IMG/VR virus record: IMGVR_UViG_651053022_000004
Location: 1-64,000 of that record
Length of the DNA: 64,000 bases
Origin: a virus
Taxonomy: Duplodnaviria; Heunggongvirae; Uroviricota; Caudoviricetes
Reading direction: 5' to 3' (one strand)
Shown piece after piece: positions 2,062 through 33,210 of this stretch. Made by a program: the position numbers and the translations under genes. The notes below the pieces were generated by a model. That model did no database searches and had not been told where the DNA came from. It saw only the letters and a program-made list of their open reading frames with translations. Positions within the stretch are counted from its first letter, which is position 1, and each line of letters starts with the position of its first letter.

Positions 2062-2279
2062 TTAATCCCCCTTTGTTTGCGGATAAGCTCCAGATCTTGC
2101 TGGCAACTGGCGCAAGTCCGACAACCCTGAACGGCCAGGCGTCTTCGTTCATCTATCGGATCGCCACACTCACAACAATGAGTGGCAGATACAGCCAGGT
2201 AGTTCAGGCGGCGCATTTTTATTGCTGTGTTGCGCTGTAATTCTTCTATTTCTGATGCTGAATCAATGATGTCTGCCAT
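2058..2279 (-). CDS. TraR/DksA-family C4 zinc-finger protein
   Basis: 73 aa with Cys-x-x-Cys ... Cys-x-x-Cys (CCECGDPI ... CRTCASC), the arrangement of phage TraR-like proteins. Confidence 0.7.
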   Translation of the reverse strand: MADIIDSASEIEELQRNTAIKMRRLNYLAVSATHCCECGDPIDERRRLAVQGCRTCASCQQDLELIRKQRGIK

Positions 2280-2330
2280 CTTTCATTAATCCCTGAACTG
2301 TTGGTTAATACGCTTGAGGGTGAATGCGAA

Positions 2331-2356
2331 CAATAAAAAAGGAGCCTGTAGCTCCC
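2331..2356 (-). terminator. Candidate rho-independent terminator within the early-left operon
   Basis: Hairpin ggagcctgtagctcc preceded on the plus strand by an A-run (U-run on the minus-strand transcript). Confidence 0.35.
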
Positions 2357-2377
2357 TGATAATTTTGCTTTTCATGT

Positions 2378-2659
2378 TCATCGTTCCTTAAAGACGCCGT
2401 TTAACATGCCGATTGCCAGGCTTAAATGAGTCGGTGTGAATCCCTTCAGCGTTACCGTTTCGCGGTGCTTCTTCAGTACGCTACGGCAAATGTCATTGAC
2501 GTTTTTATCCGGAAACTGCTGTCTGACTTTTTTGATTTCAGAATTAGCCTGACGGGCAATGCTGCGAAGGGCATTTTCTTGCTGAGGTGTCACTGAACAA
2601 GCCCCATGTCGGCAAGCATAAGCACACAGAATATGAAGCCCGCTGCCAGAAAAATGCAT
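2378..2659 (-). CDS. Hypothetical protein
   Basis: 93-aa ORF co-oriented in the early-left cluster; no recognisable motif. Confidence 0.3.
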   Translation of the reverse strand: MHFSGSGLHILCAYACRHGACSVTPQQENALRSIARQANSEIKKVRQQFPDKNVNDICRSVLKKHRETVTLKGFTPTHLSLAIGMLNGVFKER

Positions 2660-2669
2660 TCAGTGGTTG

Positions 2670-2861
2670 TCATACCTGGTCTCTCTCATCTGCTTCTGCT
2701 TTCGCCACCATCATTTCCAGCTTTTGTGAAAGGGATGTGGCTAACGTATGAAATTCTTCGTCTGTTTCTGCTGGTATTGGCACAAACCTGACTCCAATTT
2801 GAGCAAGGCTATGTGCCAAATCAATACTCGTTCTTAACTCAACAGGAGATGCTTTGTGCAT
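2670..2861 (-). CDS. Hypothetical protein
   Basis: 63-aa ORF co-oriented in the early-left cluster. Confidence 0.3.
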   Translation of the reverse strand: MHKASPVELRTSIDLAHSLAQIGVRFVPIPAETDEEFHTLATSLSQKLEMMVAKAEADERDQV

Positions 2862-3012
2862 ACCGCCCCCCGTTTATTATTTATCTCCTCAGCCAGCCGC
2901 TGGGCTTTCAGCGGATTTCGGATAACAGAAAGACCGTGAAATACCCAGCCTCGCTTTGTAACGGAGTAGACGAAAGTGATCGCGCCTACCCGGATATTAT
3001 CGTGAGGATGGG

Positions 3013-3693
3013 TCATCGCCATTGCTCTCCAAATACAAAACCAATTTCAGCCAGTGCTTCGTCCATTTTTTCGATGAACTCCGGCACCATCTCGTCAAAA
3101 CTCGCCATGTACTTTTCATCCCGCTCAACCACGACATAATGCAGGCCTTCACGCTTCATTCGTGGGTCATAGTTGGCAAAGTACCAGGCATCTTTTCGTG
3201 TCACCCACATGCTGTACTGCACCTGGGCCATGTAAGCCGACTTTATGGCCTCGAAACCACCGAGCCGGAACTTCATGAAATCCCGGGAGGTAAACGGGCA
3301 TTTCAGCTCAAGGCCATTGCCGTCACTGCATAAACCATCGGGAGAGCAGGCGGTGCGCATACTTTCGTCGCGATAGATGATCGGGGATTCAGTAACATTC
3401 ACGCCGGAAGTGAATTCAAACAGGGTTCTGGCGTCGTTCTCGTACTGTTTTCCCCACGCCAGCGCCTTAGCATTAACTTCCGGAGCCACACCGGTGCAAA
3501 CCTCAGCCAGCAGGGTGTGGAAGTAGGACATTTTCATGTCAGGCCACTTCTTTCCTGAGCGGGGCTTTGCTATCACGTTGTGAACTTCTGAAGCGGTGAT
3601 GACGCCGAGCCGTAATTTGTGCCATGCATCATCCCCCTGTTCGACAGCTCTCACGTCGATCCCGGTACGCTGCAGGATAATGTCCGGTGTCAT
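3013..3693 (-). CDS. exo: Lambda exonuclease (Red alpha)
   Basis: 226-aa translation ([43 protein letters not shown]...) matches lambda Exo as I recall it. Confidence 0.95.
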
Positions 3694-4475
3694 GCTGCCA
3701 CCTTCTGCTCAGTGGCTTTCTGTTTCAGGAATCCAAGAGCTTTCACTGCTTCGGCCTGTGTCAGTTCTGACGATGCGCGAATGTCGCGGCGAAATATCTG
3801 GGAACAGAGCGGCAATAAGTCGTCATCCCATGTTTTGTCCAGGGCAATCAGCAGAGTGTTAATCTCCTGCATGGTTTCATCGTTAACCGGAGTGATGTCG
3901 CGTTCCGGCTGACGTTCCGCAGTGTATGCAGTATTTTCGACAATGCGCTCGGCTTCATCCTTGTCATAGATACCAGCAAATCCGAAGGCCAGACGGGCAC
4001 ACTGAATCATGGCTTTATGCCGTAACATCCGTTTGGGATGCGACTGCCACGGCCCCGTGATTTCTCTGCCTTCGCGAGTTTTGAATGGTTCGCGGCGGCA
4101 TTCATCCATCCATTCGGTAACGCAGATCGGATGATTGCGGTCTTTGCGGTAAATCCGGCACGTACATGATTCATTGTCCTGCTCAAAGTCCATGCCATCA
4201 AACTGCTGGTTTTCATTGATGATGCGGGACCAGCCATCAACGCCCACCACCGGAACGATGCCGTTCTGCTTATCAGGGAAGGCGTAAATTTCTTTCGTCC
4301 ACGGATTAAGGCCGTACTGGTTGGCGACGATCAGCAATGCGATGAACTGCGCATCGCTGGCATCACCTTTAAATGCCGTCTGACGAAGAGTGGTGATCAG
4401 TTCCTGTGGGTCGACAGAATCCATGCCGACACGTTCAGCCAGCTTCCCAGCCAGCGTTGCGAGTGCTGTACTCAT
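3690..4475 (-). CDS. bet: Bet single-strand annealing recombinase (Red beta)
   Basis: 261-aa translation ([48 protein letters not shown]...) matches lambda Bet. Confidence 0.95.
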
Positions 4476-4480
4476 CCGTT

Positions 4481-4777
4481 TTATACCTCTGAATCAATAT
4501 CAACATGGTGGTGAGCAATGGTTTCAACCATGTACCGGATGTGTTCTGCCATGCGCTCCTGAAACTCAACATCGTCATCAAACGCACGGGTAATGGCTTT
4601 TTTGCTGGCCCCGCAGCGTTGCAAATGATCGATGCAGAGTGATTCAAACAGGTGCTGTGGAAGACCTTTTTCCATGTCGTCTGCCAGTTCTGCCTCTTTC
4701 TCTTCACGGGCGATCTGCTGGTAGTGACGCGCCCAGCTTTGAGCCTCAAGACGATCCTGAATGTAATAAGCGTTCAT
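4481..4777 (-). CDS. gam: Gam, RecBCD nuclease inhibitor (short form)
   Basis: 98-aa translation ([47 protein letters not shown]...) matches lambda GamS. Confidence 0.95.
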
Positions 4778-4852
4778 GGCTGAACTCCTGAAAATGGCTG
4801 TGAAAATATCGCCTGCGAAATGCCGGGCTGATTAGGTAAACAGGAAAGGGGA

Positions 4853-5143
4853 TTAGTGATTCAGGCCGTTGCCGCGTCCGTCGAGAAAAACTTCCACGAG
4901 CAAATCACGGGTATAAGTGCGCTCGATGCCGCGATGCAGATAAAGCCGTCCGCGTAAATTAGCTGATGCAGTCCAGGTACCATCTTTGTGTTTGACCAGC
5001 ATTCCTGGCATGACCGCACCGCGATTAACGGTCTGCGTTCCGTAATGTTGATGAACCATAAAAACTCCTGCCCGTAAGCTGGGCTGCTGAACATATAGAG
5101 ACTTCTGCGCGTATTCAGGCGGTGGATGGCCGCCGGTTGTCAT
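4853..5143 (-). CDS. Hypothetical protein, first ORF downstream of the putative leftward promoter
   Basis: 96-aa ORF occupying the position of lambda kil/cIII/N but resembling none of them. Confidence 0.35.
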
Positions 5144-5340
5144 AACTAAGCCGCCTCGTTGAAGCGACTAAGGTATGAAATGTTGAGTTAATTTCAGCTG
5201 GTCACACCGACGTTCACGCGTCCGTTTCACCCCTCGCACTCCCCGAAGCCTGCTGAAATTCAAACTGCGGATCTAAGCGGTCATCGCAACGGTGAATCAG
5301 GTAGTTGCCGTATCGTTGTGTTGTTGCGATGAACTTATTT

Positions 5341-5400
5341 AAAACTATAGTTGTTTTATCGTCAACAACAAAAGTTGTTTTATTGGTTGTTTTAGATATA
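5341..5400. promoter_or_regulatory. Candidate left operator/promoter region
   Basis: 17-mer aaaactatagttgtttt is the near-exact reverse complement of a 17-mer in the cI-cro intergenic region; palindrome aacaacaaaagttgtt; repeated GTTGTT half-sites. Confidence 0.4.
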
Positions 5401-5504
5401 ACTGGTTGTATTTAGGATGGATTTATTTTGTGACTTGAATCGCATAGCGATAACTGAAGCGAGGTTATGGTGGTTTTTTTAACGGTGTGTGTGATGAGGG
5501 GAGG

Positions 5505-5534
5505 GCAAAAGAAAACCCGGCACGGTGACCGGGA
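5505..5534 (-). terminator. Candidate rho-independent terminator downstream of the repressor gene
   Basis: Hairpin cccggcacggtgaccggg preceded on the plus strand by an A-rich run. Confidence 0.4.
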
Positions 5535-5654
5535 TTCTTACGCCGTTAGGTAAAGATATTATTGCGGTGGCTTAATATTACTACCTAGAGCAAAGATAGG
5601 AATTAGTTCTTTACTGAATGAGCACAATGCCCAGTTGATAATTTTTAATTGGTA

Positions 5655-6344
5655 CTACCCATGCTTCCTATATGTCTGCGGCATGCTCCCAATAACCTTA
5701 CCGAAGATGAACACCCGGTTCATCTCGTCTTTCTCGATCGGGTCCCACGGTGAGTAGCTTTTGTTATCAGAGATGACCAGCAGCTTATCCTTCATCATTT
5801 GCAGGCGCTTTACATGGGCTGTGTCGTCGTACAGAAACGCATAGATACCATCACCGTCGAAAGATTTAACTGTGATATCAACGAACAGCAGATCACCTGG
5901 TTCGATCGTTCCTGACATGCTGTCACCACGCACGTTAATGATGCGGATATTTTCCGCCTTCCTACCATCGAACATGTGACGAGCATCGTCAAACGAGTAC
6001 TCAACCGAGCGTAGAACTTCTACAAACTCACGGTTGATGACTCCCGGCCCAGCACTGACTTCTATATCAAGAACGTCAATCTTGAAGTATTTGGAATGGC
6101 TGACAGTTGATTGTATTGGTTGCACTGTACTGTCTGACATATTTCCAACGCCAGAAGATAACCATTCTGCGCGCACACCCAAAGCGTTCGCGATCTCCAC
6201 GATTTTAGTTGTTTGATTAGCTTTCCCTGTTTCGATTTTCTGAATAGCAGCCTGGCTAACCCCGACCAAATCCCCAAGCGCCTTTTGTGTAAGGCCTCGC
6301 GCTAATCTGGCTTCTTTAAGTCTTTCTGAGAGTGTTGTTTTCAT
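5655..6344 (-). CDS. CI-like prophage repressor (HTH plus LexA-like S24 peptidase domain); start at internal ATG
   Basis: N-terminal HTH (LTQKALGDLVGVSQAAIQKIETGK), C-terminal VRGDSMSGTIEPGDLL with a downstream Lys as in LexA/CI autocleavage domains; divergent from a Cro-like gene. Confidence 0.85.
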   Translation of the reverse strand: MKTTLSERLKEARLARGLTQKALGDLVGVSQAAIQKIETGKANQTTKIVEIANALGVRAEWLSSGVGNMSDSTVQPIQSTVSHSKYFKIDVLDIEVSAGPGVINREFVEVLRSVEYSFDDARHMFDGRKAENIRIINVRGDSMSGTIEPGDLLFVDITVKSFDGDGIYAFLYDDTAHVKRLQMMKDKLLVISDNKSYSPWDPIEKDEMNRVFIFGKVIGSMPQTYRKHG

Positions 6345-6382
6345 AGTCCAAATGTACAACCAAGGTTTTATTCCATCAAACG

Positions 6383-6418
6383 AAAATGGTTGTTGACTAA
6401 AAACAACCATAGTTTTAA
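6383..6418. promoter_or_regulatory. Candidate right operator between repressor and cro-like genes
   Basis: Palindrome atggttgttgactaaaaacaaccat and 17-mer aaaacaaccatagtttt shared in reverse complement with the left region. Confidence 0.5.
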
Positions 6419-6448
6419 TCTTGATTCAAATTAACCACGGAGGTTGTT

Positions 6449-6679
6449 ATGAACCCAGCTATCAAAACAGCGATCAATATCGTTGGTTCACAAAAGAAAC
6501 TGGGCGCTGCTTGCGAAGTTTCACAGCAGGCCGTCTATAAGTGGCTTCACAACAAAGCAAAGGTATCCCCTGAACATGTCGGCAGCATTGTTACGGCTAC
6601 TGGTGGAGTAGTGAAGGCATACCAGATTCGCCCGGATCTTCCGAAGTTGTTTCCACACACCGAAAAGAACGCAGCTTAA
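6449..6679 (+). CDS. Cro-like HTH regulator (YdaS-type)
   Basis: 76-aa ORF divergent from the repressor gene; HTH-like segment KKLGAACEVSQQAVYKW. Confidence 0.7.
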   Translation: MNPAIKTAINIVGSQKKLGAACEVSQQAVYKWLHNKAKVSPEHVGSIVTATGGVVKAYQIRPDLPKLFPHTEKNAA

Positions 6680-6748
6680 ATTTCCATTTCACGCTCTTTA
6701 ACAATAAGCAATCAACTTAACAGTCAATTCAAACTAAAGGAGTCAATT

Positions 6749-7288
6749 ATGCAACCACTTACATACCAACAGACTAGCGGATTTAGCCCGACTGCGGTGA
6801 TAAATCGTTCTCAAACAAAACAGGTGCCAGGCCACGAAAAAATCCGTGATGCCGTCCGCGCCTGGTCGGCTGTAGATAATCAGGATGTCGTTGCCACACT
6901 CATTGTGAATGAGTATCTGGAGCAGGGCGGCGGCACCATCGATTTCCCTGATGATGTCAGCCGTGCACGCCAGAAGCTGTTCCGCTTCCTCGATAACAAA
7001 TTCGATTCTGAAAAATACCGAAATAACGTGCGTGAACTGACCCCGGCAATTCTGGCGGTACTACCGCTGGAATATCGCGGTTACCTGGTTGAGCAGGATA
7101 GCTTCATGGCTAGGTTGGCTGAAATGGAAAAGGAACTCAGTGAGGCAAAACAGGCTGTCATTCTCAACGCACCACGCCACCAGAAACTGAAGGAAATTAG
7201 TGAAGGTATTGTGTCGATGTTTCGTGTGGACCCAGATCTGGCTGGTCCATTGATGGCGATGGTTACTACCATGCTGGGGGCGATATGA
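6749..7288 (+). CDS. YdaT-like / CII-position regulatory protein
   Basis: 179-aa ORF between cro-like and O; assignment by position and recollection of the YdaS/YdaT pairing in lambdoid prophages. Confidence 0.4.
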   Translation: MQPLTYQQTSGFSPTAVINRSQTKQVPGHEKIRDAVRAWSAVDNQDVVATLIVNEYLEQGGGTIDFPDDVSRARQKLFRFLDNKFDSEKYRNNVRELTPAILAVLPLEYRGYLVEQDSFMARLAEMEKELSEAKQAVILNAPRHQKLKEISEGIVSMFRVDPDLAGPLMAMVTTMLGAI

Positions 7289-7374
7289 CAGGTTCAGAAA
7301 TGGCGAAAGCCGGTCTGCTGGAACAGAACCGACTTTCAGGTGCAAATCGTAACACACTCATTGCGGGAGGAATT

Positions 7375-8304
7375 ATGGCAAACACTGCTGAGATATTCAA
7401 TTTTCCAGTGCCGGATGCGGCACAAAAGGAGCCGCGCGTGGCAGATCTCGATGATGGTTATACGCGCATTGCAAATGAGTTGCTGGAAGCTGTGATGCTG
7501 GCCGGATTAACACAGCACCAGCTTCTGGTCTTTCTGGCTGTCATGCGCAAAACATATGGCTTTAATAAAAAACTGGATTGGGTTAGCAACGAGCAACTTT
7601 CCGAATTAACCGGGATATTGCCGCACAAGTGTTCTGCTGCAAAAAGTGTTCTGGTAAAGCGTGGGATTTTTATTCAGAGCGGGCGGAATACCGGCATTAA
7701 TAATGTGGTCAGTGAATGGTCAACATTACCCGAATCAGGTAAGAAAAATAAAGTTTACCTGAAAGAGGTAAATTTACCTGAATCAGGTAAAAAAAGTTTA
7801 CCCAAATCAGGTAAAGGCGTTTACCCGAATCAGGTAAACACAAAAGACAAACTAACAAAAGACAATATAAAACCTTTTTCGTCCGAGAATTCTGGCGAAT
7901 CCTCTGACCAACCAGAAAACGATCTTCCTGTGGTGAAACCGGATGCTGCAATTCAGAGCGGCAGCAAGTGGGGGACAGCAGAAGACCTGACCGCCGCAGA
8001 GTGGATGTTTGACATGGTGAAGACCATCGCGCCATCAGCCAGAAAACCGAATTTTGCAGGGTGGGCTAACGATATCCGCCTGATGCGTGAACGTGACGGA
8101 CGTAACCACCGCGACATGTGCGTGCTGTTCCGCTGGGCATGCCAGGACAACTTCTGGTCCGGTAACGTGCTAAGTCCGGCCAAACTCCGCGACAAGTGGA
8201 CCCAACTCGAAATCAACCGTAACAAGCAACAGGCAGGCGTGACAGCTAGCAAACCAAAACTCGACCTGACAAACACAGACTGGATTTACGGGGTGGATCT
8301 ATGA
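7375..8304 (+). CDS. O: Replication initiator O (start at internal ATG after a GGAGG motif)
   Basis: Translation from MANTAEIFNF... aligns with lambda O (VADLDDGY..., LRKTYG...); origin iterons embedded in the coding sequence. Confidence 0.9.
   Translation: MANTAEIFNFPVPDAAQKEPRVADLDDGYTRIANELLEAVMLAGLTQHQLLVFLAVMRKTYGFNKKLDWVSNEQLSELTGILPHKCSAAKSVLVKRGIFIQSGRNTGINNVVSEWSTLPESGKKNKVYLKEVNLPESGKKSLPKSGKGVYPNQVNTKDKLTKDNIKPFSSENSGESSDQPENDLPVVKPDAAIQSGSKWGTAEDLTAAEWMFDMVKTIAPSARKPNFAGWANDIRLMRERDGRNHRDMCVLFRWACQDNFWSGNVLSPAKLRDKWTQLEINRNKQQAGVTASKPKLDLTNTDWIYGVDL
7727..7875. repeat. Replication origin: five ~17-bp iterons plus an A-rich flank inside the O gene
   Basis: ttacccgaatcaggtaa, ttacctgaaagaggtaa, ttacctgaatcaggtaa, ttacccaaatcaggtaa, ttacccgaatcaggtaa at ~23-bp spacing, followed by acaaaagacaaactaacaaaagacaatataaaa. 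Confidence 0.8.
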
Positions 8305-9002
8305 AAAACATCGCCGCACAGATGATTAACTTTGACCGTGAGCAGATGCGTCGGATCGCCAACAACATGCCGGAACAGTACGACGAAAAGCCGCAGGTAC
8401 AGCAGGTAGCGCAGATAATCAACGGTGTATTCAGCCAGTTACTGGCAACTTTCCCGGCGAGCCTGGCTAATCGTGACCAGAACGAACTGAACGAAATCCG
8501 CCGCCAGTGGGTTCTGGCTTTCCGGGAAAACGGGATCACCACGATGGAGCAGGTGAGCGACGGAATGCGTGTTGCCCGTCGGCAGAATAGACCATTTCTG
8601 CCATCACCCGGGCAGTTTGTTGCATGGTGCCGGGAAGAAGCATCCGTTACCGCCGGGCTGCCAAACGTCAGCGAGCTGGTTGATATGGTTTACGAGTATT
8701 GCCGGAAGCGTGGTCTGTATCCGGATGCAGAGTCTTATCCGTGGAAATCAAACGCGCACTACTGGCTGGTTACCAACCTGTATCAGAACATGCGGGCCAA
8801 TGCGTTGACTGACGCGGAATTACGGCGCAAGGCTGCCGATGAACTGGCCTGTATGACCGCGCGAATTAACCGTGGTGAGGCTATACCTGAACCAGTAAAA
8901 CAACTTCCTGTCATGGGCGGTAGGCCTCTAAATCGTGCACAGGCTCTGGCGAAGATCGCAGAAATCAAAGCTAAGTTCGGGCTGAAAGGAGCGATGAAAT
9001 AG
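8301..9002 (+). CDS. P: Replication protein P (DnaB helicase loader)
   Basis: 233-aa translation (MKNIAAQMINFDREQMRRIANNMPEQYDEKPQVQQVAQIINGVF...) matches lambda P. Confidence 0.95.
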   Translation: MKNIAAQMINFDREQMRRIANNMPEQYDEKPQVQQVAQIINGVFSQLLATFPASLANRDQNELNEIRRQWVLAFRENGITTMEQVSDGMRVARRQNRPFLPSPGQFVAWCREEASVTAGLPNVSELVDMVYEYCRKRGLYPDAESYPWKSNAHYWLVTNLYQNMRANALTDAELRRKAADELACMTARINRGEAIPEPVKQLPVMGGRPLNRAQALAKIAEIKAKFGLKGAMK

Positions 9003-9220
9003 AGCTAAAGTATTAGCTTAAAAATAAAGTATACCTAGCGAATATAATCTAGGACTAGTTGTAACGCCCGAAATGATTGATTGCGTGAGCAACAAAATTT
9101 TTCTTCCATTGTTGTGAAATCATTTAGCCATAAAGTTTATGCAGAGATTTTATTTTATTTTTGAGTTGATTTTTTTGTAACGAGCTGTGAACATAAAACA
9201 CTATCAGTAAGTTGGAGTCA

Positions 9221-9607
9221 TTACCCAGGAATTGTTCTGTATTCTACAGCGGCCACAACAAAACCAGCTTCTGCCAGAGCCATTCTCATTTCAATAAATT
9301 TGTCATGTTCAGAAGACATGAATCCGCCGCCGGGATAATAAATAATGGCTGGTTTTAAATCATTTGTTCGCGGGACAAGAACTGACATGTGAAGCTGTCT
9401 GACAGAACGAGTTCCTTTTATCTGGGAATAAACAACATCACCAATGAGATCGACCTGGTTTCTGGTCGGTGAAACACTAATGATATCTGCACCCGGGGTG
9501 TAACCAGGAAGATTAGTCTGGACAGGTGTTGCACAACTCCCGACCGACATGGCCATTGACATACCATACAATAGTGTTGCAGATGATAATATCTTGTTAA
9601 TTTTCAT
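9221..9607 (-). pseudogene. N-terminal fragment of a lipoprotein-type alpha/beta hydrolase (esterase-like), probable remnant
   Basis: Signal peptide with ...SVGSC lipobox, oxyanion-hole-like YYPGGGF and VEYR motif, but the ORF stops before any nucleophile G-x-S-x-G motif; set in an AT-rich island. Confidence 0.4.
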
Positions 9608-30237: not shown

Positions 30238-30426
30238 ATGGCATTTAAACACTATGATGTTGTCAGGGCGGCGTCGCCGTCAGATCTTGCGGAAAAGCTG
30301 ACACATAAACTGAAAGAGGGCTGGCAGCCGTTTGGTAGTCCGGTGGCCATAACCCCTTATACCCTGATGCAGGCGATTGCAGCAGAAGGTGATGTGGTGG
30401 TCAGTGGTGCAACTGAGCCGGAGTGA
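30238..30426 (+). CDS. DUF1737-like small protein typical of lambdoid late regions
   Basis: 62-aa product MAFKHYDVVRAASPSDLAEKLTHKLKEGWQPFGSPVAITPYTLMQAIAAEGDVVVSGATEPE; assignment from recollection of proteins encoded upstream of holins. Confidence 0.45.
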   Translation: MAFKHYDVVRAASPSDLAEKLTHKLKEGWQPFGSPVAITPYTLMQAIAAEGDVVVSGATEPE

Positions 30427-30669
30427 TACTACGTCATCGTACTGGCCCGGCATTCTAGGCCATAAAGGACAGTCTGGCAGTGGGACTAAATGCACTGACG
30501 CTGACGGATATTACCAAAAATGCAACGTATGGCGTTGAGATAGAAAGTCTGGTGCTGGAGATAAATGTACCGGCATCATCATAAAAAGTGAGCCAGTCAA
30601 ATGGAAGGTATCGTTAAACTCACCGGTAGTGTCAGTGGGTCGTCTGAGATGCCTGCATGAGTTATCAGA

Positions 30670-30699
30670 GCCATCAGTACTTAACTGGTGGCTTTTTTT
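30670..30699 (+). terminator. Candidate late-leader terminator upstream of the holin
   Basis: Hairpin gccatcagtacttaactggtggc followed by a T-run. Confidence 0.45.
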
Positions 30700-30734
30700 A
30701 TTGTTGTCAGCTTCCGGATAACGGGAGACGGGGT

Positions 30735-30950
30735 ATGGACCAGATGGAAAAAATCACAACAGGTGTGTCATACACCACGTCAGCGGTGGGAACGGGCTAC
30801 TGGTTCCTGCAGTTGCTGGACAGGGTTTCCCCGTCTCAGTGGGCGGCAATAGGCGTGCTGGGGAGTCTGCTGTTTGGGCTGCTGACATATCTGACTAACC
30901 TGTATTTCAAAATCAGAGAGGACCGTCGTAAGGCGGCACGGGGAGAGTAA
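30735..30950 (+). CDS. Class II holin, S21-like pinholin (start at internal ATG)
   Basis: 71-aa product [71 protein letters not shown], two TM segments; resembles phage 21 S as I recall it. Confidence 0.8.
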
Positions 30951-30954
30951 TTCA

Positions 30955-31305
30955 ATGACTCAAAACTATGAACTGATTGTGAAAGGGATCCGCAATTTTG
31001 AGAATAAAGTTACGGTAACTTTAGCGTTACGGGACAAAAAACGCTTTGACGGTGAAATTTTTGACCTGGACATCTCGCTGGACCGTGTTGAAGGTGCCGC
31101 GCTGGAGTTTTATGAGGCAGCAGCCAGAAGGAGCATCAGACAGGTCTTCCTGGATGTTGCTGCCGCGTTATGTGAAGGGGATGAGCAGTCGCCGGAAAAG
31201 CGCCCCGTAATTTTAGAGGCGCAGAATGTATGGATAACCTACAAAGGAAAGCTACCGGGAAGAATTACTGGTTCTCTGAAGACTCCTCCGGAATCACAAC
31301 CTTAA
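30955..31305 (+). CDS. Chimeric ORF: YdfR-like (DUF1327-like) N-terminus fused to a duplicated segment
   Basis: 116 aa; N-terminal ~73 aa resemble the small protein found between holin and endolysin in some lambdoid prophages; the last ~39 codons are the segment repeated at 32087-32205. Confidence 0.4.
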   Translation: MTQNYELIVKGIRNFENKVTVTLALRDKKRFDGEIFDLDISLDRVEGAALEFYEAAARRSIRQVFLDVAAALCEGDEQSPEKRPVILEAQNVWITYKGKLPGRITGSLKTPPESQP

Positions 31306-31339
31306 GTCACTGACCGGAACAGATAAACCTGTCCGTGGG

Positions 31340-31867
31340 GCAAAAATCAGATACGGCCTGTCGGCTGCCGTTCTGGCACTGATTGCCGTCGGTGCGCCCG
31401 CGCCTGATATTCTCGACCAGTTTCTGGATGAAAAAGAAGGTAACCACACAACGGCATACCGCGATGGGTCCGGCATCTGGACCATCTGTCGGGGGGCCAC
31501 GATGGTGGATGGAAAACCCGTTTTTCCCGGTATGAAACTGTCGAAGGAAAAATGCGACCAGGTCAACGCCATTGAGCGTGATAAGGCGCTGGCATGGGTG
31601 GAGCGCAATATTAAAGTACCACTGACCGAACCACAAAAAGCGGGTATAGCGTCATTCTGTCCCTATAACATTGGCCCCGGTAAGTGTTTCCCGTCGACGT
31701 TTTATAAGCGGCTGAATGCCGGTGATCGTAAGGGCGCATGCGAGGCGATTCGCTGGTGGATAAAAGATGGTGGGCGCGATTGCCGCATACGTTCAAATAA
31801 CTGCTATGGACAGGTTATTCGTCGTGACCAGGAAAGCGCATTAGCCTGTTGGGGGATAGAGCAGTGA
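31340..31867 (+). pseudogene. SAR-endolysin (lysozyme-like) copy A lacking a start codon
   Basis: Colinear with the intact copy at 32547-33080 from its third codon on, but the upstream in-frame sequence has no ATG/GTG/TTG before the catalytic region; only an internal ATG at 31502. Confidence 0.65.
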
Positions 31868-32268
31868 GCAGAGTCGCCGCGATTATTTATGCTTTGGTTA
31901 TCTGCATCATCGTCTGCCTGTCGTGGGCGGTCAATCATTACCGTGATAACGCCATCGCCTACAAAGAACAGCGTGATAAAAAAGTCAGTGAGCTGAAGCA
32001 GTCGATCGCCACCATCGCTGACATGCAGCAGCGTCAGCGTGATGTTGCTGCACTCGATGCAAAGTACTCGAGAGAATTAGCCAATGCGAAAGTCGCCGGA
32101 AAAGCGCCCCGTAATTTTAGAGGCGCAGGATGTGTTGATAACCTACAGAGGAAAACTACCGGGAATAATTACGGGTTCTCTGAAGAGTCCGCCGAAATGG
32201 TAATTTTACCAGCATATTTTTCATCCAGTAATACAGCAAGCCGCCTGAAAGAGTCTTGTTGTTCCTGA
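31864..32268 (+). pseudogene. Rz-like spanin 5' fragment (about 75 codons) fused to the duplicated segment
   Basis: [40 protein letters not shown]... is Rz-like up to ...ELANAK, then continues into the 32087-32205 repeat in an unrelated frame. Confidence 0.6.
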
Positions 32269-32441
32269 GACCATTTGGGATTGCATGATTCAAACTGGAT
32301 TGATGCCAGCGTTGATTGCATCTGTTCCCTTGGAATTGAGAATGCCAGATATGAGAAGGCGACGGTAAGGGTATTCACGTCTTCCCGAAGCCTGGAAATG
32401 CTGTCGAGCAACTCCTGTAGAGAAATGGTGTTATTGTCCAT
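32169..32441 (-). CDS. Hypothetical protein
   Basis: 90-aa minus-strand ORF between the duplicated segment and endolysin copy B; its last ~12 codons lie in the repeat. Confidence 0.3.
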
Positions 32442-32546
32442 AAATAATCCTCATGATTGTATTGACCTGTTAGCAGCCTGAGGCAACAGGCTGGAACTGA
32501 TAAACATATCCAGGGCTCAGAAACCGATAAATCCTGATAAATATCC

Positions 32547-33080
32547 ATGAACGCAAAAATCAGATACGGCCTGTCGGCTGCCGTTCTGGCGCTGATTGCC
32601 GCTGGTGCGCCTGCGCCTGACATTCTCGACCAGTTTCTGGATGAAAAGGAAGGTAACCACACCACGGCATACCGTGATGGCGCGGGTATCTGGACCATCT
32701 GCCGCGGTGCCATCCTGGTGGATGGCAAACCTGTCGTTCCGGGCATGAAGTTGTCGAAGGAAAAATGCGACCGGGTTAACGCCATTGAGCGTGATAAGGC
32801 GCTGGCATGGGTGGAGAAAAACATCAAAGTGCCATTGACCGAACCCCAGAAAGCGGGGATCGCGTCATTCTGTCCGTACAACATTGGTCCCGGTAAGTGT
32901 TTCCCGTCGACGTTTTACAGACGAATTAATGCAGGTGATCGCAGGGGAGCATGCGAAGCGATTCGCTGGTGGATTAAGGACGGTGGCAGAGACTGCCGTA
33001 TTCGCTCAAATAACTGTTACGGTCAGGTATTCCGTCGTGACCAGGAGAGCGCGCTGGCGTGCTGGGGAATCGACAGATAA
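32547..33080 (+). CDS. SAR endolysin (lysozyme-like), intact copy B
   Basis: 177 aa with N-terminal signal-anchor-release-like segment (MNAKIRYGLSAAVLALIAAGAPAP) and E...D...T catalytic-triad spacing (DEKEGNHTTAYRDGAGIWTI). Confidence 0.8.
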   Translation: MNAKIRYGLSAAVLALIAAGAPAPDILDQFLDEKEGNHTTAYRDGAGIWTICRGAILVDGKPVVPGMKLSKEKCDRVNAIERDKALAWVEKNIKVPLTEPQKAGIASFCPYNIGPGKCFPSTFYRRINAGDRRGACEAIRWWIKDGGRDCRIRSNNCYGQVFRRDQESALACWGIDR

Positions 33081-33172
33081 GCAGAATATTTTGCTGAAAA
33101 ATGAGGTTGGCCAACGCGGGCGGATAACACGAAGTCCTGTGAACTGGCAAAACCTAAGTGAATAAAAGTAAA

Positions 33173-33210
33173 AACCCCGTTTGTTGGCAGCAAGCGGGGT
33201 TTTGTTTTTA
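33173..33210 (+). terminator. Candidate terminator downstream of endolysin copy B
   Basis: Hairpin ccccgtttg...caagcgggg followed by ttttgttttt. Confidence 0.5.

Follow-up and report, generated by a model that had tools for sequence, protein, structure and literature searches.

In the cryptic prophages CP-933P and Rac, the repressor gene lies divergent from the gene for a YdaS-family Cro protein, which is followed by one for a YdaT-family analogue of CII (PMC8630535, PMC9986795). Palindromic operators are repeated at OR and at a distant PL in these prophages, the repressor mRNA is of the leaderless type, a cargo slot is found downstream of the repressor gene and there is no N gene. Here we describe a control region of the same general layout in a 64,000-nucleotide (nt) stretch of the virus record IMGVR_UViG_651053022_000004 (Caudoviricetes), which we refer to as the window; counts given for 64 kb cover all of it. 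Our reading, to which we assign a probability of about 0.6, is that the region constitutes the immunity and early-control module of a functional lambdoid phage that is independent of N. The original prediction for this stretch had raised the question of how antitermination is achieved in an early-left operon that lacks N. The question is a legitimate one but is not new, as published work already recognizes lambdoid phages that lack N and names put as a guess (PMC12315714).

Further points of comparison come from HK022, 434 and BTP1. HK022 is likewise a lambdoid phage without an N antiterminator and has a conserved non-coding RNA, put, at the 5' end of its PL transcript (PMC9378689). The window also has a conserved non-coding sequence in this position but, unlike HK022, it has no match to a put model, no second copy after PR and no Nun. 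Phage 434, whose operator consensus is ACAA-N6-TTGT, shares with the window a homologous repressor DNA-binding domain, the 14-bp geometry of the operators and a tripartite OR. The two differ in the recognition helix (SQAAIQK in the window vs TQQSIEQ), in the window half-site, which extends to AACAAC, and in that 434 has its own Cro, N and nut sites whereas the window Cro belongs to the YdaS family. The immC region of BTP1 encodes a repressor that is 75% identical to that of the window (those of the P22-like phages ST104 and ST160 are equally similar, the three being its nearest named relatives) together with a Cro homologue of the same family, and it has a boxA (CGCTCTTTA) after cro and a slot for defense cargo (BstA) after the repressor gene. 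BTP1 differs in having a gp24-type N, a nutL and a nutR that each consist of a boxA and a boxB with a GACAA loop, and operators of the AATAGC type; N, nutL and boxB are all missing from the window. With regard to CP-933P and Rac, the differences are that RacR, at 158 amino acids (aa) by its annotated coordinates, is too short to hold the S24 C-terminal domain that accompanies the 434-like domain in the window repressor, that the CP-933P operators are GTTTAGTAA-type repeats rather than AACAAC-N4-GTTGTT, that the CP-933P cargo slot is occupied by paaA2-parE2 while the window slot is empty, and that the window module, in addition to being found in prophages, is present in phage records listed with E. 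coli hosts.

The module is set in a lambda-like backbone. The window opens with a lambdoid prophage in which the minus strand carries int (1-1143), then xis, several small open reading frames (ORFs) and lambda-like exo, bet and gam genes (3013-4777), and the plus strand from 6449 onward carries the Cro-like gene, O, P, nin-region genes and the gene for the Q antiterminator (11456-12145). Positions 2068-4859 are 96.6% identical to lambda 30402-33193 (orf61 to gam) and positions 7838-8992 are 94.9% identical to lambda O/P, so that 4860-7837 is a non-lambda cassette. By Pfam assignment, none of the repressor, the Cro-like protein and the YdaT-family protein encoded in this cassette corresponds to lambda cI, cro or cII. 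These domain assignments and the identities of the flanks bear out the earlier claim that a non-lambda repressor and Cro lie between lambda-like Red and O/P genes. The segment 4780-6460 is present at an identity of at least 99% in 1029 complete E. coli genomes (1049 have at least 80% of the segment covered), and the module is 99.4-99.6% identical in the phage records PhiR34_1 (listed host K-12 MG1655) and Turner. With so little divergence among more than 1000 E. coli genomes and the phage records, the lack of N in this module would appear to be a working design that is compatible with viability, and not a sign of decay.

The DNA-binding domain of the repressor matches that of the 434 repressor (PDB 1per, E=4.5e-9) and, taken together with operators of the ACAA-N6-TTGT form, this places the repressor in the 434 class. 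From about residue 86 to residue 229 the protein is identical to the repressor of 4A7-type phages, whereas the DNA-binding (helix-turn-helix) domain is different. The Cro analogue resembles BTP1 Cro in its N-terminal half, as judged from a by-eye comparison of the sequences. A role as CII analogue has been described for the YdaT family in CP-933P (PMC9986795, PMC8630535). The window thus has the layout of a CI/YdaS/YdaT switch, with a repressor gene divergent from that of a YdaS-family Cro, a YdaT-family gene after it and, at the sequence level, repeated palindromic operators over PR/PRM and at the distant PL. The module is therefore ordinary in kind, an added member of the CI/YdaS/YdaT, 434-class family. 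YdaT of CP-933P binds TTGATT-N6-AATCAA at the ydaS/ydaT junction (PMC9986795), and a candidate region with related half-sites is present at the corresponding place in the window. In addition, a perfect copy of the published CP-933P YdaT operator motif (TTGATTATGAATAATCAA) is found at 9873-9890, the sole perfect match in 64 kb, where it overlaps a promoter-like TTGATT-17-CATAAT directed at ninB.

Palindromes of 16 bp with the form AACAAC-N4-GTTGTT make up the predicted operators; PL has two of them and PR/PRM three or four, at a centre-to-centre spacing of 23-24 bp. The original prediction had noted related 17-mers and GTTGTT/AACAAC palindromes in both intergenic regions and had suggested a motif search for all operator copies. 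With up to one mismatch allowed, the search of all 64 kb returned five matches to ACAACNNNNGTTGT (1.7 would be expected anywhere), and all five fall inside 5341-5378 or 6356-6447, that is, in the two control regions; each of them fits ACAAC-N4-GTTGT with 0-1 mismatch. The related repeats are likewise confirmed as parts of predicted operators: the similarity is 88% between 5343-5359 and 5367-5383 and 83% between 6356-6373 and 6403-6420, and the 19-nt stretch 5339-5357 is 95% complementary to 6400-6418. The strongest support for the operator assignment is what appears to be a natural swap. At the homologous OL positions, 4A7-type phages carry AATAGC-N4-GCTATT (AATAGCAATAGCTATT at the position of OL1), so that in these sister phages the half-sites differ together with the DNA-binding domain of the repressor. 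The possible fourth site at the start of cro may in part be a by-product of the cro Shine-Dalgarno (SD) sequence. PL and PR, for which we infer the starts as well as the order of operator occupancy, have the same architecture, and the PRM candidate ends 6 nt before the repressor ATG, which would leave the repressor mRNA with little or no leader. Such an mRNA has been described for CP-933P paaR2 (PMC8630535). The coordinates of these and the other features are collected in Table 1.

Table 1. Features of the control region and of the early-left operon, in window coordinates.
Feature	Position	Strand	Description
First strong leftward intrinsic terminator	2339-2357	-	8-bp stem followed by UUUUUUAUU; -10.2 kcal/mol
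kil, first gene of the PL operon	4853-5059	-	68 aa; predicted FtsZ inhibitor of the Kil/KilR family
kil-upstream element	5118-5177	-	CAUACC, 9-bp hairpin HP1 and near-invariant 28-mer UUAUGACAACCGGCGGCCAUCCACCGCC (5145-5118)
Conserved PL-leader RNA core	5185-5289	-	~105 nt; two hairpin domains, possible pseudoknot
PL promoter (predicted)	5337-5365	-	TTGACG (5365-5360), 17 nt, TTAAAT (5342-5337); start ~5330
OL1 (predicted)	5340-5355		TAAAACTATAGTTGTT; overlaps PL spacer and -10
OL2 (predicted)	5364-5379		AACAACAAAAGTTGTT; perfect palindrome, overlaps PL -35; sole 0-mismatch match in 64 kb
Intrinsic terminator ending the repressor transcript	5516-5533	-	6-bp GC stem and U run; -12.4 kcal/mol
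CI-type repressor gene	5655-6344	-	229 aa; Pfam HTH_3 (PF01381) and Peptidase_S24 (PF00717); ATG at 6344
PRM candidate	6351-6379	-	TTGATG (6379-6374), 17 nt, TACATT (6356-6351); from sequence
OR3-equivalent (predicted)	6355-6370		TACAACCAAGGTTTTA; covers PRM -10 and spacer
OR2-equivalent (predicted)	6379-6394		AACGAAAATGGTTGTT; adjoins PRM -35, extends to PR -35
PR promoter (predicted)	6393-6421	+	TTGACT, 17 nt, TAATCT
OR1-equivalent (predicted)	6402-6417		AACAACCATAGTTTTA; covers PR spacer and -10; 95% complementary to OL1
Possible fourth operator site	6433-6448		AACCACGGAGGTTGTT; over cro SD and start codon; one mismatch
Cro analogue gene	6449-6679	+	76 aa; YdaS family PF15943 (E=4e-17); PHROG 35
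Orphan boxA	6692-6704	+	CGCTCTTTAACAA; in the place of nutR, after cro and before the ydaT-like gene
Candidate YdaT-binding, PRE-like region	6710-6746	-	TTGATT and two TTGACT half-sites; from sequence
CII analogue gene	6749-7288	+	179 aa; YdaT family PF06254 (E=9e-30)

A further analogue for a leaderless repressor mRNA is lambda cI. A plausible scenario is that the 434-class repressor, which is presumably RecA-inducible through its S24 domain, binds the AACAAC-N4-GTTGTT operators, three of which would lie over PR and the leaderless-type PRM and two over PL, with the YdaS-family protein acting as Cro and the YdaT-family protein as CII. The repressor transcript would end at the terminator at 5533-5516. 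The PL transcript would consist of a leader of about 270 nt followed by the coding sequences for a KilR-type FtsZ inhibitor and lambda Gam-Bet-Exo, and Kil and Red would be expressed without processive antitermination. On the rightward side, the boxA after cro would be what is left of a P22-type nutR, or else a site at which NusB/NusE is loaded to dampen Rho termination without N.

Several observations agree with the earlier claims that N and rexAB are missing. We found that: (i) no ORF between the predicted PL start (~5330) and kil is plausible as N; (ii) tblastn with lambda N, HK022 Nun, the phi80 'N' and the gp24-type N of BTP1 gave nothing in the window (all E>0.4); (iii) PHROG and Pfam scans of the early ORFs gave no N match, and the other ORFs have non-N PGAP names in an identical E. 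coli copy and (iv) an intrinsic terminator and then OL come directly after the repressor gene, leaving the slot that rexAB would occupy empty. In relatives this slot is variously filled, with a SIR2-family protein in O157:H7 (locus L210, 1438-3039), an ASCH gene and a 1-kb ORF in 4A7 (L003, 4256-5672), BstA in BTP1 (L328, 2973-3896) and insertions of ~0.8-1.4 kb in many IMG/VR loci. The search of the PL leader for nut-like elements that had been proposed was carried out and nothing resembling nutL was found: on the minus strand of 5060-5330 there is no boxA match with 3 or fewer mismatches, the best 12-mer in the leader matching at 8/12. A covariance model built from 33 putL/putR sequences, run over the whole window with filters off, gave a best score of 11 bits (E=0.64) inside the O gene and no match in the PL leader or after cro, and when the leader and the HK022 put regions were compared with the window by blastn, neither a second copy nor similarity to put was seen. 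A 'GAACGG' motif common to putL and the leader was suggestive at first but was rejected on the basis of the put covariance model.

The first gene of the PL operon had been described as an unrecognised 96-aa ORF in the place where N would be expected. This description did not survive closer inspection. The kil frame happens to be open up to an ATG at 5143, which is the source of the 96-aa reading; the gene itself is the distal 68 aa, with an SD sequence (GGAG) 5 nt before the ATG at 5059. Its product matches PHROG 294 over the full length (E=1.3e-37) and the name given by PGAP to WP_000233576.1 is 'phage encoded cell division inhibitor protein'. The match to the NCBIfam model NF008465 ('FtsZ inhibitor protein') has E=1.8e-17 and a score of 63 bits, below the 92-bit cut-off, and because of this the window Kil is, as judged from its sequence, best regarded as related to Rac KilR without being its equivalog. 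It has no similarity to lambda Kil, and tblastn of the window with lambda Kil and cIII returned nothing. The original prediction had itself named the identification of the 96-aa protein as a known lambdoid early gene as the result that would speak against it, and the homology search found just that: Kil/KilR is a known early-left gene of lambdoid phages and Rac.

We next consider whether antitermination is required at all. Downstream of kil, gam, bet, exo and orf61, and before a TraR-like gene, xis and int, lies the only convincing intrinsic terminator that follows PL in the leftward direction (2357-2339). It falls within the lambda-homologous segment, at about lambda 30.67 kb, presumably near the map position of tL3. 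Since no strong intrinsic terminator is found between PL and 2357, N is likely dispensable for Kil and Red, and both could probably be expressed without it. In the rightward direction no strong intrinsic terminator was seen before Q, which is probably also reachable without N. A number of points weigh against so simple a picture. The terminator at 2357-2339 is a good one and divides Red from xis/int, and no readthrough factor was found here; expression of xis/int from PL is the step that our reading leaves unexplained. On the other side, a weaker hairpin with U7 is located at ~9994-10020, ahead of ninB, and the approximately 1 kb between P and ninB (9003-10054) contains no rightward ORF of at least 60 aa and would invite Rho, for which the 186-270-nt PL leader is itself a potential target. 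If that leader were a mere spacer, its conservation and seeming structure would be unexplained. As for the boxA after cro, copies of the cro module are near-identical and their conservation therefore says nothing about it. Lastly, the assignments of binding, transcription start and termination in this module are predictions from sequence. With regard to the stretch between P and ninB, we observed that it holds a minus-strand ORF of 128 aa (9221-9607) and that strain 4/1-1 has an inverse autotransporter gene after P in its place.

The PL leader, about 270 nt long and followed by the KilR-type gene, contains the conserved core listed in Table 1. In 49 distinct sequences that share the leader, the operator region (5395-5331) is of three unrelated types, and hardly any variation is seen between ~5330 (~5292 in the O157 type) and kil; phages that differ in immunity thus share homology from about the predicted PL start onward. 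Diverged homologues of the core are present in two metagenomic/viral contigs (L098, 8532-8636, and L350) and in a prophage of Scandinavium hiltneri (L329, 6928-7032), the latter being the one match in a scan of 185,579 species genomes, and a metagenome scan added only a few further variants. Apart from the Scandinavium case, the core is nearly restricted to prophages of E. coli. Structural support for the core is modest. RNAalifold predicts two hairpin domains with 4 compensatory pairs, as compared to 0.9 in shuffles (0/500), and slid controls scored lower. Between a loop, AAUUUCAG(C), and the 3' tail, (G)CUGAAAUU, there is a complementarity that is invariant across the homologues and may allow a pseudoknot. 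A long-range 5264/5225 pairing hinted at by polymorphisms was rejected, as many sequences have the C-A combination. The whole 275-nt leader is no more stable than shuffled sequence when folded (z=0.05), and an Rfam scan of 4400-7000 (E<=10) gave only noise, with nothing in the leader or in the element upstream of kil. Neither the covariance model of the core nor blastn found a second copy in the window, and the paired copies after PL and PR that are typical of put are thus not seen here. Among the phages that have the kil-upstream element, the slot just after PL is filled by the window-type leader at 43 loci, by a phi80-type leader at 34 and by put at 22, and no lambda-type or P22-type N was seen in these loci. 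The phi80-type leader is a different, highly conserved sequence of ~230 nt found behind different operators in phi80, HK225 and Klebsiella KO-TP1 (minus strands of L004, ~1100-900, L005, ~3830-3600, and L008, ~3270-3030); within it are a boxA-like UGCUUUUUAACAA and G-rich repeats (GAGAACGG), and it may represent a third kind of early-left processivity element.

We also identified a second conserved element, located upstream of kil. Its hairpin HP1, in which 5169-5161 pairs with 5157-5149, occurs in at least 7 sequence classes, with 97.7% of cells paired and compensatory changes in 6 of the 9 pairs; covariation was 0.506 as compared to 0.183 in shuffles (0/500) and at most 0.09 in slid controls. 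Of 5426 complete E. coli genomes, 2227 (~41%) have the element, and it is annotated in none of them; it is also found in phi80, HK225, phages of Enterobacter and Klebsiella and at least 119 IMG/VR contigs (further copies at L004, 355-413, and L005, 2501-2563, and in L007, L008 and L009-L127). A full-text literature search for the 28-mer core returned no paper, and we found no publication on this immunity specificity, the PL leader or the element; a search on PhiR phage names gave nothing relevant. The ATG in the 28-mer opens small ORFs that vary in frame, length and stop. Because blocks of nucleotides persist across these different frames, the constraint is on RNA (or DNA), and past MTTGGHPPP it does not act on a peptide. 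As the element is found together with put and with both the phi80-type and the window-type leaders, it is not the antiterminator; our best guess is that it is a cis-regulatory 5' element for the translation or stability of the kil-Red mRNA. In most phages it comes directly after the intrinsic terminator of a hypervariable 'moron' gene, a slot that accommodates more than 35 unrelated small ORF families. These ORFs (L009-L127) each end in a terminator made up of a GC hairpin and a U run, often GCCGCCTAACCAGCGGC, and in phi80, ENT1 and KO-TP1, the three phages read directly, a conserved 5' cassette (GCATTTCTCCCGCATCAGCGGGTAACGACAGAGGGTAAGG) lies ahead of the slot. In the window, the slot is without a gene. 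The idea that HP1 class tracks the upstream gene, as would be the case for a cognate protein-RNA pair, was rejected since there was no association across the more than 35 unrelated ORF clusters. In Rac (E. coli K-12; L209, 2906-3003) an annotated small RNA, KilS, precedes kilR and shows no homology to the window leader or element; long regulated leaders ahead of kil genes nevertheless seem to be a recurring theme.

Other explanations were also considered. One is that the orphan boxA is functional and that NusB/NusE, with NusA, NusG and SuhB, is loaded on PR transcripts so as to suppress Rho-dependent termination up to Q without N. The boxA matches the phage/rrn consensus at 13/13 positions (12/12 to GCTCTTTAACAA), is the sole perfect match in 64 kb and stands in the correct position between cro and the CII analogue, upstream of the ~1 kb without rightward ORFs; its distance from the cro start (+243) is constant across the 69 IMG/VR loci where this cro was found, with one exception. 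There is also precedent for boxA acting alone, in rrn operons, Salmonella CRISPR arrays and suhB (PMC7665894, PMC5725501). Against this, the sister N-less phages of the 4A7 and O157 types have no boxA after cro, and the lack of sequence variation makes any constraint unmeasurable. There is no GC hairpin in the position of a boxB, the spacer folding only weakly (-3.6 kcal/mol), and since the related BTP1 has N and boxA/boxB nut sites the window boxA could be either a nutR relic or a stand-alone Nus-factor site. We consider a functional boxA possible but doubtful. In the 4A7 type, the cro-cII spacer (L003, 6765-6800) has a hairpin, GCCGCCUAAUCUGCGGC, that is closely like the terminator hairpins of the moron slot. 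For the early-left operon, an explanation that we regard as rather unlikely is that the leader core is a cis-acting antiterminator RNA, put-like in function but unrelated in sequence, that confers resistance to Rho and to the terminator at 2357-2339. The near-invariance of the leader from about the PL start behind at least three operator types, the slot that it shares with put and the phi80-type leader, the retention of both hairpins in diverged homologues and the intrinsic terminator that remains in the downstream operon would all fit with this. Positional equivalence with put, which is the basis of the idea, is an analogy and not functional evidence, and the element has no put-model match, no rightward partner and a whole-leader fold no better than random, with a structure that is supported by only ~3 independent lineages and was itself derived from their sequences. 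We give similarly little weight to the composite of a cis-acting leader RNA for early-left expression, a stand-alone boxA with host Nus factors for the rightward direction and the kil-upstream element as a new, widespread cis-regulatory RNA.

Could N have been overlooked, or lost? A small N-like protein might be encoded in the leader, either in a 31-aa ORF with a TTG start (5263-5168), whose product reads RLRGVRGVKRTRERR and is reminiscent of an arginine-rich motif, or as a 28-aa N-terminal extension of Kil from the ATG at 5143, which lies within highly conserved sequence. The 31-aa frame is broken in homologues, codon 6 being TGA in L098 and codon 13 TAA in L329, on which grounds we rejected this ORF as N; it also lacks an SD sequence and a family match. 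The frame opened at 5143 varies between phages past MTTGGHPPP, as described above, and we give a leader-encoded N hardly any credence. It is also very improbable, in our view, that the region belongs to a decaying prophage remnant in which N and nutL were lost by deletion and the early-left operon is poorly expressed. A boxA without boxB does look like a relic, and ydaS is frameshifted in some O157 copies, but the same module is identical or near-identical (at least 99%) in ~1030 genomes, is found in records of phage genomes for which laboratory E. coli hosts are given and has an N-less leader whose conservation extends over three immunity types and to a second genus. We therefore favor a functional module that is independent of N.

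The control of this module is relevant to a large part of the species, as about one-fifth of the complete E. coli genomes have the module and ~41% have the kil-upstream element, and it bears on prophage induction, Kil toxicity and Red-mediated recombination in many clinical lineages. The repressors of the window type and the 4A7 type provide a clean natural pair for the study of operator recognition. As it stands, the antitermination puzzle has been narrowed: with N, nutL and put excluded, the candidates are the leader core, the orphan boxA and the hairpin element upstream of kil.

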